The notes beneath the pieces were generated by a model, which ran no database searches, had not been told where the DNA came from, and worked only from the letters and a program-made list of their open reading frames with translations. The translations under genes and the position numbers were made by a program. 64,000 nucleotides of DNA. Source: Phycisphaeraceae bacterium. GTDB lineage: Bacteria > Planctomycetota > Phycisphaerae > Phycisphaerales > Phycisphaeraceae. Shown in pieces: positions 30,891 through 35,240 of the stretch (its first letter is position 1; each line of letters begins with the position of its first letter). The stretch is from NCBI GenBank assembly GCA_963674705.1, contig OY771506.1, positions 4,480,001-4,544,000 of the forward strand, given 5' to 3'.

Positions 30891-30910
30891 AACGGGGTCT
30901 GACCCCGTTT
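30891..30910. repeat. RAYT-associated hairpin repeat, copy 1
   Basis: AACGGGG-TCTGA-CCCCGTTT, touching the RAYT stop codon. Confidence 0.9.
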
Positions 30911-31622
30911 TAGGGATTTGCCTTGGGCCGGCCGGGTCTACGGACGGTGGATTCGAGGCCGAAGGTTTGGATGGTGCGGTTCCGCCATTGATCATTGCCG
31001 AACGGTGAACAGCGGTTGGCGCTGGTGCGCAGTGCGTTCAGTTCGACTTCGCTGAGCGGGGTGTTGACGGTTCGTAGCCAGTTGCGGGGTCGGCCGCGCT
31101 GGGGCGATGTCAAACCACGGATGGGCCAATCGCTGAGTAGTTGCTGTTGATCAGTATCGCCAGACTTCCAACGCCATAATCCTGACCATCTCCACGCTGC
31201 CGCCGACTCCACCAATCCCGCACGCATCGCATTGCGTTCGACGTATCGGCAGACGGTCAGCAGATGTTCGTTGCTTTGGATCAGAAAGGATTTGAAGCGT
31301 CCCTGGTACAACGGCCCGTCTCCCACGCTCTTGTGTGCAACCCGGTAACGCCCGGCGTGGGTCGTGGTCAGCCACTGCATGAACGGGCCAAGCGCGCCGT
31401 CGGCCTCGGTCTTGAGGACCAGGTGCCAGTGGTTGCCCATCAGGCAGTAGGTCAGCAACCGGACAGCCCCGCCGCTTCGTTCGACCGCTTCAGCCAGGAC
31501 CTTTTCGAACGCTTCGAAGTCGCCATCCTTGCGAAACATCCGCCACCGCCCGGCCGTACGGCCGTACGGTTCAGGACATGGTAAGCATAGCCGCCGACAT
31601 CAACGCGTGGAGGTCTTGGCAT
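30910..31622 (-). mobile_element. REP-associated tyrosine transposase (RAYT, TnpA-Y1/HUH), frameshifted by an 8-bp tandem duplication
   Basis: HUH motif YCLMGNHWHLVL, LYQGRFKSF, catalytic Tyr in RYVERN, and WRWS. The true N-terminus MPRPPRVDVGGYAYHVLNRTA starts at 31622 in another frame. Removing one CGGCCGTA unit (31551-31566) restores a 705-nt ORF. Confidence 0.9.
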
Positions 31623-31656
31623 ACGTGTAGTTTAGGTCCGGTCGCCAAGCCCGTCA

Positions 31657-31695
31657 AAACGGGGTCTGACCCCGTTTCTTCCGCCGTTTCTTCCG
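31657..31695. repeat. RAYT-associated hairpin repeat, copy 2, with 12-bp junction duplication
   Basis: AAACGGGG-TCTGA-CCCCGTTT (31657-31677); CCGTTTCTTCCG occurs twice in tandem (31672-31695). Confidence 0.9.
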
Positions 31696-31919
31696 CGTTC
31701 CGTGGCAACCGGATCGACGTGGCTGCACGCGACGCGATCGTAAACGATCCGGTTCTTCAACCGCTATTCCACAGTCAACGGCTGCGGAGTTTCTACACGC
31801 GTGGTCCCGATTCCCGCGACACACTGACGGGGCGTTGGTGGGACATGACAACCCCCGGTCAGTGGAACGCACATGTAACCCGCTACGGGCCGGGCGGCAC
31901 GCTGCTACCCACGCGATGA
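31695..31919 (+). pseudogene. 5'-truncated polymorphic (Rhs-type) toxin C-terminal fragment, possibly a restriction-endonuclease-fold nuclease
   Basis: AFRGNRIDVAARDAIVNDPVLQ...RGPDSRDTLTGRWWDMTTPGQWNAHVTRYGPGGTLLPTR*. It has no start of its own, begins exactly at the hairpin junction, and carries a PD...D-x-T-T pattern. Confidence 0.6.
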
Positions 31920-31957
31920 CGATACGAACAGAGGTATAGTATTGCCGAGAGAAACCG

Positions 31958-32863
31958 ATGAACAAGAAGAAACTGCAAGAACGGTGGTCGGCACAAGACA
32001 TCAAGCGTGTGGCGTCGGCGCTGCGGTCTGGCGGGGAGATCGCCGAGTCGCTGAGCCCGTTCGGCCGACACGAGGAGAGGATCGACCTGCGTGGCTTCCC
32101 TATGCCAGCACCGGTGAGGATCGAAAATGCCACGCTTGTGGGCGTGGACCTCAGTGCTACGGAGCTGTCGCCGCTCTGGATGGAGCATTGCCAGTTGAAA
32201 AATGTCCTGTTCGATCATGCGAAACTGGACGGCTTCAGCGATCAGGGCAACCGGTTTGAATCCTGCCGGTTTTTGGGCACCTCGTTCGTGGGTGGGCGAT
32301 TGGGTTACCAGGGTTCGCAGTATCACGGATGCACTTTTGAGAAGTGTAAATTCACGACGGCGGGTGGAATTCGTGCGGAGTTTTATGGATGCCGTTTCAC
32401 CGACTGCAAGCTCAAGGGTGTAGACTTCGAGGCCTCGGCCTTTGAGGATTGCATCTTTGAGGGGAAGCTTGCCGACGTCTGGTTCCGTGGCGGGTACCCA
32501 TATGAGGGCTACGAACGCAAGTTCGGGACGCCTAAGACAAACCAGATGAAGAACGTCTCATTCGCCGGTGCTGAGTTGGAACTTGTCGCTTTCAGTAATG
32601 ACTGTGACCTGACTACGGTGGTCTTGCCGGAACAGGGCGAGTACAGGAAATATGACCGTTGGGCGAGGCGTTTGTTGCGACTGAAGGATGAAGCGAACGG
32701 TTGGGAGGAACCTGATCGAAAGGAAGGGCAGTTCTTCGTGCAGGTGACGATGCCTCATGCTCAGACGCAGGAGTGGATGATTGTCAATGTAGATGATGTG
32801 CGTAAACACATTGCCCCGCATGCGACGGAGCGGATCATCGAATCGCTGGACAAGCCGATTTGA
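31958..32863 (+). CDS. Pentapeptide-repeat protein, putative toxin immunity protein
   Basis: Repeats such as CTFEKCKFTT, AEFYGCRFTDCKLKGVDFEASAFEDCIFEG. It lies directly downstream of the toxin fragment, and its G/T-ending codon usage differs from host genes. Confidence 0.8.
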   Translation: MNKKKLQERWSAQDIKRVASALRSGGEIAESLSPFGRHEERIDLRGFPMPAPVRIENATLVGVDLSATELSPLWMEHCQLKNVLFDHAKLDGFSDQGNRFESCRFLGTSFVGGRLGYQGSQYHGCTFEKCKFTTAGGIRAEFYGCRFTDCKLKGVDFEASAFEDCIFEGKLADVWFRGGYPYEGYERKFGTPKTNQMKNVSFAGAELELVAFSNDCDLTTVVLPEQGEYRKYDRWARRLLRLKDEANGWEEPDRKEGQFFVQVTMPHAQTQEWMIVNVDDVRKHIAPHATERIIESLDKPI

Positions 32864-32900
32864 GGAAGAAACGAGGAAGAAACGGGGTCTGACCCTGTTT
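32862..32900. repeat. RAYT-associated hairpin repeat, copy 3, with 11-bp junction duplication
   Basis: GAGGAAGAAAC twice (32862-32883), running into AAACGGGG-TCTGA-CCCTGTTT (32880-32900). Confidence 0.9.
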
Positions 32901-32997
32901 TTCGGGTGGCTTGCTTAGGGAGAGCCGTGCCGAGCGCGGCGAGGTTTTATGTCGTCGCGGCTGGTGGCTGTGCGGGTTTGTGGTTGTTGATGTGAAG

Positions 32998-33043
32998 AGC
33001 GCGACCGATGGTCGCGGCTATACAGGTGGGTGTGAGTTCATTG
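32998..33043 (-). repeat. REP-like repeat family C, copy 1
   Basis: GCGCGACCGATGGTCGCGGCTATACA...GGTGGGTG.GA.TTCATTG; second copy at 34270-34318. Confidence 0.7.
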
Positions 33044-33159
33044 TAAAAGACAAAAACCCGGCCGGGATGGTCGGGCATTAGACGTGAAGCAAGAGCGCTA
33101 AGCCGTAAGCGGCTTGACGAGTTGGTCGTGTTTGCTTTGTGATTCGTTACTTAAGCAAC

Positions 33160-33206
33160 CCGGCCCTCACCCCGCCCCCCCCGGAAGTCTCCCGGGGGGA
33201 GAGGGA
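33160..33206 (-). repeat. Palindromic repeat family A, inverted copy
   Basis: CCGGCCCTCACCCCG...CCCCCCGG-AAGTCTC-CCGGGGGGAGAGGGA; its 5' part is near reverse-complementary to 28443-28458. Confidence 0.6.
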
Positions 33207-33366: not shown

Positions 33367-33387
33367 AAACGGGGTCTGACCCCGTTT
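33367..33387. repeat. RAYT-associated hairpin repeat, copy 4
   Basis: AAACGGGG-TCTGA-CCCCGTTT. Confidence 0.9.
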
Positions 33388-33427: not shown

Positions 33428-34108
33428 TTAATCGAGAGCGGCTTCTGCACCGGCGGCCCAGAAGCCGGCGGAGAGGTCCAGGTAGATTTCGTTGACGCCG
33501 GGGCCGGAGGCGCCGTTGGTGAGGCGGCGTTCGGTGGTGCCGTAGTGGTAGTAGGTGGGTTCGCGGAAGAAGTTGCGGTTGTCGACGGGTGAGAAGTAGA
33601 CGTTGCTTGGAGCGGGATTGAGGTTCCAGTTGTCGGCGGCCCAGAAGCCGGGGTGCCTGTCGGTGGACATGTAATTCTCGAGGTCCTGCGTGAAGTCGTC
33701 GTTGTTGTTGACGCGATAGGTGTTGCCGTGGTCGTACTCGATCGCATCGAATTCATTCAAGGGGCAGATGTAGACTTCGCTTTCGGCGGGGAGGAGGTTG
33801 AGCTCATCGTAGAGCGCCTGGATGCCGAAGGTTTCGGGGCCGTTGCTGGCGGTAATTGGTGTGCTTTCACGGCCGGGCGCGACGCGGAAGCCTGCGCCAC
33901 CATAGGCTATGCGCGGGGGGACGGTTTGCTTGGGGTTTTCGGATTGGTAAGCGCTGCTTGCGATACCGATCTGCCGGAGGTTGTTCATGCACTGGACGTT
34001 CTTGGCGCTTTTGCGAGCGGCGCTGAGGGCGGGCAGGAGGATGCCGATCAGCAGTGCGATGATGCTGATGACTACAAGCAGTTCGATCAGGGTGAAGGCT
34101 CGTTTCAT
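33428..34108 (-). CDS. Prepilin-type N-terminal cleavage/methylation protein (paralog 1)
   Basis: [32 protein letters not shown] (start 34108), VYICP, and C-terminal YYH...[14 protein letters not shown]. Confidence 0.9.
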
Positions 34109-34269
34109 ATCTAAGCTAATAGTATGACCGGCCGGGGCAAGAGTATCAACCATAAAGTTGACGGGAGCAAGATGTTGCAATGGGTTATTATGAAAATCGG
34201 TTGTAGGGAAGGCCGGCCATTGCGTGGGCGGGTGGGCCGGCCCACAGATTGAATCTGTGGGCTTCGATG

Positions 34270-34318
34270 CGCGACCGATGGTTGCGGCTTTACACCGTTT
34301 GGGTGGGTGGGATTCATT
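34270..34318 (-). repeat. REP-like repeat family C, copy 2
   Basis: GCGCGACCGATGGTTGCGGCTTTACA...GGTGGGTGGGATTCATTG. Confidence 0.7.
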
Positions 34319-34324
34319 GAGCGT

Positions 34325-34353
34325 GTGGATTCCCGCGTGCGTGGGAATGACGG
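34325..34353 (-). repeat. Palindromic repeat family B, inverted copy
   Basis: The reverse complement reads CCGTCATTCCCACGCACGCGGGAATCCAC, matching 28823-28851. Confidence 0.75.
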
Positions 34354-34445
34354 ATATAAAATACAGAGGGTTTTAGCGCAGCTTGACCATCAGTTGGTGC
34401 TGATGGTCAAGGCGTGTTGTTTGTGATGGGGAATTGCCTGGTTGG

Positions 34446-35162
34446 CTAATTATTAGTAGTACTCTCGGCGCCGACGGCCCAGAAGCCGGCGGAGAGGTCG
34501 AGGTAGAGTTCGTTGACGCCGGGGCCGGAGGCGCCGTTGGTGTAACGGCGTTCGGTGGTGCCGGTGTGATAATACGTTTCTTCACGGAAGAAGTTTCGGT
34601 TGTTAGGCGTACCGGTGTATTGATCGCCGTTGCCCGAGGTCGGAGAGAAGTAGACGTTGCTGGGCGCTGGCCTGAGGTTCCAGTTGTCGGCGACCCAGAA
34701 GCCTGAGTGCTTGTCACTGGACATGTAGTTTTCGAGGTTTTGTGTGAACGGGTCGGATGCGTTGACGATGTAGGTATTGCCGTGGTTGTTTTCTTCGACA
34801 TCGAAGGTATTAAGCGGACAGATGTAGACCTCGCTGTTACCTGCGATTAATCCCAGTTCATCAAAGAGGGCTTGGAGCCCGAACGTTTCGGGGCCGTTAC
34901 CCGTTGTGACAGGGTCGCTTTCGAAATCCGGAGCGACACGGAAGTTCGCTCCGCCAAGCACGCGCCGCGAGGGCATGGTCTGCCTGGGGTTGTCGGCCTG
35001 GTAAGCGCCGCCGGCGACACCGAGTTGATGGAGGTTGCTCATGCACTTGACATTCATGGCGCTCTTGCGTGCTGCGCCGAGTGCGGGCAGCAGGATACCG
35101 ATCAGCAGCGCGATGATGCTGATGACCACGAGTAATTCGATCAGAGTGAAAGCTCGTCGCAT
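34446..35162 (-). CDS. Prepilin-type N-terminal cleavage/methylation protein (paralog 2)
   Basis: [32 protein letters not shown] (start 35162); shares long identical blocks with paralog 1. Confidence 0.9.
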
Positions 35163-35240
35163 ATCAAACCCACTTGTATGGCATGGTAAGCCAAGTCGTT
35201 GAAAAAACACCGACGTAACAACGTTGCCGGTGATGTACTG

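Follow-up and report, generated by a model that had tools for sequence, protein, structure and literature searches.

The locus described here raises the question of what kind of reaction can join a small gene cargo to inverted repeats and leave a short tandem duplication at each junction. In the window (the whole stretch of DNA analysed, 64,000 nucleotides in length), a cargo unit of 1170 nt (31694..32863, + strand) lies between copies 2 and 3 of a repeat, the terminal inverted repeat (TIR). Its palindrome GGGGTCTGACCCC is present in four copies in this 64-kb window, with 8 strand-matches seen against 1.7 expected by chance. Copy 1 (30891..30910, core GGGGTCTGACCCC at 30894-30906) is located at the 3' end of a Y1 gene, and copy 2 (31657..31677, core 31661-31673) upstream of the same gene, facing the cargo; copy 3 (32880..32900, core 32884-32896) has one substitution in its core, and copy 4 occupies 33367..33387 (core 33371-33383). 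With +1 as the base right after GACCCC of the TIR core, the left duplication (31672..31695, + strand) consists of the 12-nt unit CCGTTTCTTCCG twice, starts 2 nt inside the core, ends at +10/+11 and takes in the initial 1-2 cargo bases, and the right one (32862..32883, - strand) consists of the 11-nt unit GAGGAAGAAAC twice and ends at +10/+11 of copy 3. Both of these stutters, as we call them, are exact, as a preliminary description of the locus had reported; both start 0-2 nt inside the core and end at +10 or +11 with 1 nt of ambiguity. Copies 1 (30894) and 4 (33371) have no TTCC extension, as the same description stated, and no duplication either. The left arm of copy 1 resembles a degenerate TIR at the equivalent position of a congener (G004) and its right side matches the Y1 element, and the G004 ortholog of copy 4 bears a 17-nt stutter that ends at +10. 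The preliminary description had also stressed that GTTTCTTCC on the left is the reverse complement of GGAAGAAAC on the right. This inverted 9-nt match is exact, but it mostly reflects the symmetry of the TIR (GTTT being the palindrome foot) together with shared descent of the TIR lineage; the extension of copies 2 and 3 is also found at genome positions 293519, 293734 and 296483, in G004 and in G009.

The junction duplications are not an assembly artefact. A Logan contig of run X2 spans 31650-32901, and one of run X3 spans 31650-32609, each with 0 differences and 0 gaps. These are comparisons with contigs rather than raw reads, and X2 and X3 come from a single sample, which may be the source of the window itself, so that the agreement amounts to re-assembly rather than an independent strain. 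This would leave some room for an error of sequencing or assembly; however, the short-read contigs show both stutters without any difference, the scar recurs in many independent assemblies, and in G009 a TIR lies in frame in an apparent DNA-ligase gene, where the stutters on either side of it have 12-nt units and leave the frame intact. We regard such an error as extremely improbable. G004 has an in-frame TIR at the equivalent position of this gene, which by its motifs is apparently the NAD-dependent DNA ligase, and our genome is without a TIR there. The ligase loop (L238 in G004, L248 in G009) measures about 33 nt in G004, that is, the TIR with about 10 nt on each side, versus 12 nt at the counterpart in our genome (2488193-2488254), a difference suggesting that the 33 nt are a minimal mobile unit or, alternatively, that our lineage has lost them.

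The gene between copies 1 and 2 (30910..31622, - strand; Pfam Y1_Tnp) encodes a Y1/HUH tyrosine transposase of the TIRYT type and is frameshifted near its 5' end. An 8-nt tandem duplication (31551..31566, + strand) breaks the frame and is missing from both the paralog and the related gene of run X4; its edge is also the point where a TIR extension joins a Y1 fragment at genome 293734-293877, which makes this position an apparent hot spot. The paralog, at genome 291435-292136, is intact (234 aa; 97% identity over 209 aa, tblastn). The residues H62, H64 and Y124 are invariant across 103 homologous sequences, and the best match of the predicted structure is 4ER8, the TnpA-REP of E. coli (E 1e-7, Foldseek); a PDB sequence search with the protein gave nothing useful. 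The predicted model of the 234-aa protein has C-terminal helices at 179-218, and an HTH was found in this part neither by Pfam nor among the Foldseek matches listed. The profile NF047646 scores 47 bits on the 209-aa ORF against a cut-off of 80, and 7101 proteins match the Y1 protein at E 1e-30 or better. Only 6 of the 30 TIRs in our genome have a Y1 gene within 1.5 kb, and every TIR core type adjoins a Y1 gene or fragment there.

The cargo begins with a start-less C-terminal stub of an RHS-type polymorphic toxin (31695..31919, + strand), which is cut mid-domain and retains the last ~74 of ~110 aa. Its homology begins at an Ala codon at +10, and it is 52-78% identical to the proteins P0001-P0007, two of which have an RHS core; homologues of the domain form the C-terminal end of proteins of up to 2652 aa. 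Pfam gave no family for the toxin tip. The stub is followed by an intact pentapeptide-repeat gene of 301 aa (31958..32863, + strand), the stop codon of which overlaps the right stutter by 2 nt and which, judged from its position, is the probable cognate immunity gene. P0001 and P0009, the closest relatives of the toxin and of the pentapeptide protein, each list a 2721-nt Logan contig, which suggests that the two relatives are linked. P0009 extends 13 residues beyond the stop of the window's gene and has KGDK as its C-terminus; as the third TIR core would translate in this way, its gene may abut a TIR too. An intact donor toxin gene was not found in our genome, the cargo had no DNA match in 40 relatives, and a scan of genome contigs with the pentapeptide protein returned only 2 weak, unrelated loci.

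Stutters are far from being a peculiarity of this cargo. In our genome, an exact tandem duplication of at least 9 nt occurs at 10 of 66 TIR sides, with one event counted from both sides. At random genome positions, exact duplications of 9-60 nt with any end were found in 70 of 20,000 cases, and in 11 of 20,000 when the end had to fall in a range including +10. After removal of identical sides, the counts were 10/60 in our genome, 16/70 in relatives of the genus and 10/261 at unselected foreign loci, and stutters at TIRs occur in many phyla. For example, a 95% paralog of copy 3 at genome 296483 bears four units that vary in length and share their outer end. When the class was searched for the stutter pattern, 2 of 401 genomes gave matches of this type, our genome being one, and the exact TIR variant is therefore patchy. 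Two sister-core patterns gave 0 and 1 matches in viral contigs; the sister TIR core is nearly missing from these contigs yet abundant in genomes. At several further loci (L139, L144, L150, L158, L184 and L185), in some Acidobacteria and Actinomycetota, the TIR itself stands in tandem arrays with a period of 11-25 nt, and these arrays are possibly the end state of repeated stuttering. In our genome, locus L002 (2795780-2797600) is a cluster in which small unknown genes are surrounded by TIRs of at least three core types, with stutters of 13, 17 and about 51 nt.

The geometry of these events is regular. In two sets of 82 and 85 events, the slopes of the outer end on unit length were 0.06 and 0.12, and those of the start, or inner end, were -0.95 and -0.88. 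As the preliminary description had proposed, the distance between the repeat and the end of the duplications is nearly fixed, with the outer end about 9-11 nt outside the core. Among 26 events from our genome and the genus, 17 are compatible with an end at +10, 14 with +11, 8 with +12 and 7 with +9. The direction is equally constant: at 389 unselected sides, 36 duplications run inward, into the TIR, and 1 outward, and this sole outward case is itself an imperfect inward array. Two further expectations did not hold. A single-nucleotide cut site is not supported, given the spread of the outer ends, which is 9-11 in the genus and 3-16 across phyla. A conserved TTCC/GGAA boundary is likewise rejected, with GTTTCTTCC at the boundary in 6 of 130 sides from our genome and the genus and in 0 of 271 foreign sides. 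Positions +9 to +12 hold mixed bases, and the C present at +11 in 62 of the 130 sides is frequent partly because of the stutters themselves. The boundary is set by position and the local sequence is free.

The hairpin is not needed either, although the preliminary description had measured the offset from it. The repeat GGGGTCWGACCCC folds into a 9-bp stem at -9.0 kcal/mol, and inner ends often lie at the loop, which is what would be expected if a polymerase slipped at a DNA hairpin, with no enzyme involved. Against this, other hairpins (443, with a stem of at least 9) show a duplication at only 1 of 886 sides, and that one away from the foot; in addition, the outer end is independent of unit length, many events have no microhomology, and the scar is also seen where the core is non-palindromic or folds only weakly. 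The core GGTTCCTGACACC/GGTGTCAGGAACC folds at -0.5 kcal/mol compared with -9.0 for the palindrome, and beside another Y1 paralog the core GGTGTCAGGAACC has two stutters that start 10 nt from it. A pattern scan for this weakly folding core returned 126 loci in many phyla and one archaeon, and 83 of 136 matches were exact duplications, with ends that peak at 9-11 and none above 16 even though the pattern permitted ends beyond 30; because the set was selected for duplications, it gives the offset and not the frequency. The other side of the asymmetric core has a duplication in 8 of 175 cases, which on inspection are copies of the whole core or arrays belonging to the same events. Unselected sites of this core in 121 genomes gave 6 versus 0 for the two sides, each 10 nt before the repeat, with five of the 6 from one genome. 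The same scar is present at a third core, which is non-palindromic and adjoins a Y1 fragment, and AAH-GGKG sites gave 11 matches among 2665, all 11 being TIR cores. Slippage at the hairpin was rejected on the control hairpins and the non-folding cores, and we rate it as very unlikely.

The limits of the cargo fall at the same place as the stutter ends. On the left, the G004 copy of the TIR matches the window through +9 and differs at +10, the start of the toxin Ala codon, so that a junction after GTTTCTTCC fits there. On the right, the TIR extension and the stop codon share 2 nt, and +9 to +11 therefore all fit. A second comparison is offered by run X4 from another study, in which a 15,658-nt contig carries window 31694-32863 in inverted orientation with 5 differences in 1170 nt. 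Its order is the Y1 5' part with copy 2, 84 unread nt, the inverted cargo, 1419 unread nt and a copy-3-like TIR. The shared cargo stops at +9 on the left and at +10 on the right, counted in the distal unit of each stutter, with an uncertainty of 1-2 nt from chance matches. Thus a junction after GTTTCTTCC, at +9, is compatible with both cargo ends, and both ends were joined in inverted geometry, as first described. The Y1 5' part and copy 2 of X4 differ from the window at 63 positions over about 357 nt, and this near-identical cargo beside a diverged transposase suggests that the cargo was recently exchanged between hosts. The preliminary contrast with a DDE target-site duplication also stands, since each tandem lies at one end, contains TIR sequence, and is one of an inverted pair of unequal length. 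Its reading of the duplications as scars of the insertion survives only in part: the near-fixed offset agrees with it, but the left unit contains 1-2 cargo bases, so this stutter is younger than the capture and not a product of the insertion itself.

Some other joins have similar limits. The segment 32862..33360 (+ strand) is 95% identical to genome 296460-296959, a TIR with about 480 nt of flank, and its homology stops at +10|+11 on the left side of copy 4. We sorted 51 rows of flank homology by eye: in 16 of them non-TIR DNA is joined at +8 to +14, in 22 the homology starts at +19 to +45, and the remaining 13 are self or TIR-to-TIR matches. At the orthologous G004 locus the flanking genes are shared and the TIR-bounded content is different, consisting of an RraB-like stub, a piece of a multicopy element and an SMI1/KNR4 gene; the variable cargo of congeners includes SMI1/KNR4 and SUFU matches. 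Pfam assigned a family to 9 of the 38 ORFs searched, out of 56 candidates near TIRs, and as there was no control set, this is no evidence for enrichment of immunity genes. A second, larger TIR array (L001, genome 291417-296959) is orthologous to L229 of G004 with different cargo; it holds the intact Y1 gene, a WG-repeat gene, an IS fragment, another apparent toxin stub with a small gene, and an ATPase gene that is presumably PilB/GspE-like. To the right of the cargo in the window, dispersed hairpins of the GCGCGACCGATGGTCGCGGCT and CCCTCACCCCG types (32999-33024, 33149-33205 and 34269-34294) have many genome copies, are unrelated to the TIR and show many loose ends in Logan contigs. Two tandem paralogous prepilin-type (N_methyl/DUF1559) genes (33428-35210), 77-87% identical in blocks, adjoin PEP-CTERM genes and are conserved in G004.

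Duplications and many joins to unrelated DNA thus end about 9-11 nt outside the GACCCC/GACACC half, at any local sequence. We think it reasonably probable that the stutters are footprints of the TIRYT (Y1/HUH) enzyme, which would nick about 10 nt outside the TIR and keep the TIR strand as a 5'-phosphotyrosine; the geometry is observed directly, and the role of the Y1 enzyme, its polarity and its action in trans are inferred. The enzyme would recognise a GG(G/T)GTCA-type half-site, nick about 10 nt 5' of it and stay on the TIR strand through the phosphotyrosine. A host polymerase would then extend the 3'-OH of the flank for a variable distance into the TIR, and the extended 3'-OH could resolve the phosphotyrosine link to give a tandem copy; repeated rounds would yield arrays that share one outer end. 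If the 3'-OH came from other DNA, it is this foreign DNA that would become linked to the TIR end. In this way a pair of half-sites that face inward, one on each strand, may have joined both ends of the toxin-stub/immunity cargo. At least the left stutter would then stem from re-nicking after capture; a palindromic core could work in both directions. Such a nick with extension predicts that the outer end stays fixed while the inner end varies, that duplications run inward, that microhomology is dispensable and that arrays can form. We assume action in trans because only 6 of 30 TIRs are near a Y1 gene and the window gene is frameshifted. The chemistry has precedents: in the available part of PMC8266576, a HUH nick leaves a 5'-phosphotyrosine and a 3'-OH able to prime synthesis or resolve the link, and the 5'-phosphotyrosine of TnpA-REP is resolved in vitro by whatever 3'-OH is added, and the portion of PMC3333891 at hand gives a related nick-and-extend model for the amplification of BIMEs. 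Counting against the proposal, the offset is a distribution (3-16 across phyla) and not one bond, and the 22 of 51 homology rows that start at +19 to +45 are unaccounted for.

The same enzyme could instead act with opposite polarity or with two cuts, in the manner of IS200/IS605 or BIME recombination; a TIR-strand 3'-OH at +10 would then attack another nick that the enzyme has made at a variable position. Two observations agree with this: inner ends are concentrated around the core centre (-7 to -9) and at -4, and in whole-core duplications, with units of 32-37 nt, both ends often lie about 10 nt from the core. TnpA-REP also cuts 5' and 3' of REPs according to the part of PMC8266576 available. 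However, this scheme requires the enzyme to cut a second time within the site it occupies, irrespective of sequence, no common junction dinucleotide was seen by inspection, and a single nick of opposite polarity with extension predicts an outward duplication, the direction seen at 1 of 389 sides. We consider it unlikely. More doubtful still is a non-catalytic roadblock, in which a TIR-bound protein stalls or breaks forks at footprint distance and host end-joining or template switching duplicates and captures DNA. It accounts for the loose offset, for the sequence-specific one-sidedness and for a slight excess of microhomology, which was 1.11 against 0.69 (p 0.02) and 1.18 against 0.76 (p 0.0005) in a simulated null. 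This modest excess is not predicted by pure ligation, and 49% and 36% of the events had zero microhomology; arrays whose ambiguity exceeds 6 nt were excluded from this comparison. The invariant catalytic His-x-His and Tyr in 103 homologues speak against a mere roadblock, and the strictly inward direction with a constant outer end over rounds, as in the four units at genome 296483, favours a recurrent nick.

If nicking by the TIRYT enzyme is accepted, a wider reading can be offered tentatively, and we hold it with clearly less confidence than the nick itself. TIRYTs may be a widespread system of sequence-indifferent DNA capture, in which 5'-activated ends about 10 nt outside the half-sites ligate any 3' end, and TIR clusters may serve as integron-style landing pads that exchange foreign fragments, notably toxin tips and immunity genes, between species without a recombination site on the cargo. 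Were this true, immunity and other genes could be acquired with no site on the incoming DNA, and the HUH enzyme would be a ligase that may join arbitrary 3' ends. The scars predict the substrate (a TIR half-site, with the hairpin dispensable), the position (about 10 nt outside) and the polarity for a large Y1 class for which we found no study of cleavage sites and no TIRYT biochemistry. Subclass 2.1 of this class is present in 14.9% of strains, as given in the available text of Quentin 2018 (PMC6006769).

The element in the window belongs to a known family, the TIRtron/TIRYT, which was named by Di Nocera 2013 (PMC3733652, seen in part). The Y1_Tnp gene at 30910-31622 lies between TIR cores at 30894 and 31661, the GGGGWSAS motif is present here as GGGGTCAG on the A-centre strand, the HUH motif and the catalytic Tyr are conserved (H62, H64, Y124), the flanks are unrelated to GTAG REPs with stem feet AAAC/GTTT, some TIRs are self-complementary, and the family is moderately abundant and dispersed, with about 30 copies here. 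TIRtrons were placed in TnpA-Y1 subclass 2.1 in the sections of Quentin 2018 (PMC6006769) available, a subclass equated with RAYT Group 1 in the accessible part of bioRxiv 10.1101/2020.03.09.984088, and the present element probably belongs there, although the C-terminal HTH extension of the subclass has no Pfam HTH counterpart in it. The cut site, the end stutters and cargo capture are not described in the text available from PMC3733652 and PMC6006769, the string 'duplicat' being absent from that of PMC3733652; the figures and supplements of both might show such ends. Our literature search, which covered few subscription papers, found no description of end stutters or TIRYT cargo capture, and no paper printing the four core 13-mers. 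The offset, the direction, the hairpin independence and the cargo limits are new, and the end-processing signature with capture is an undescribed aspect of the family.

Compared with other systems, the RAYT/TnpA-REP proteins of groups 2 and 3 with their REP/BIME repeats share, as far as the available parts of PMC3333891 and PMC8266576 go, the fold, nicking and strand transfer near a palindrome, and a proposed nick-extend-religate amplification of tandem units. Here, in contrast, there is no GTAG tag and no conserved C|T junction, the offset is apparently positional, the hairpin is dispensable, both palindrome strands are used and kilobase cargo is joined. IS200/IS605 elements (IS608, ISDra2) likewise have the Y1 HUH fold, are cut at ends near a subterminal palindrome and make no target-site duplication. 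From the portion of their literature available, they have two different ends, guide-selected cleavage and one active strand, whereas the ends here are inverted-symmetric, with free junction sequence and stutters on both palindrome strands. IS91, in the part of PMC13181058 available, is a HUH element that makes no target duplication and moves adjacent DNA to a variable end, and its one-ended transposition resembles the segment 32862-33360, copied with its TIR; it differs by distinct ori and ter ends and a tetranucleotide target, in place of symmetric TIRs and no conserved target. Finally, the orphan toxin-CT/immunity modules and acquired interbacterial defence arrays, in the available parts of their descriptions, resemble this locus in the start-less toxin tip followed by a probable immunity gene and in cargo that varies between congeners, and the truncated toxin C-terminus found here is homologous to the tips of RHS proteins. 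Unlike those modules, the cargo here is bounded by Y1 TIRs and includes host DNA and IS fragments.
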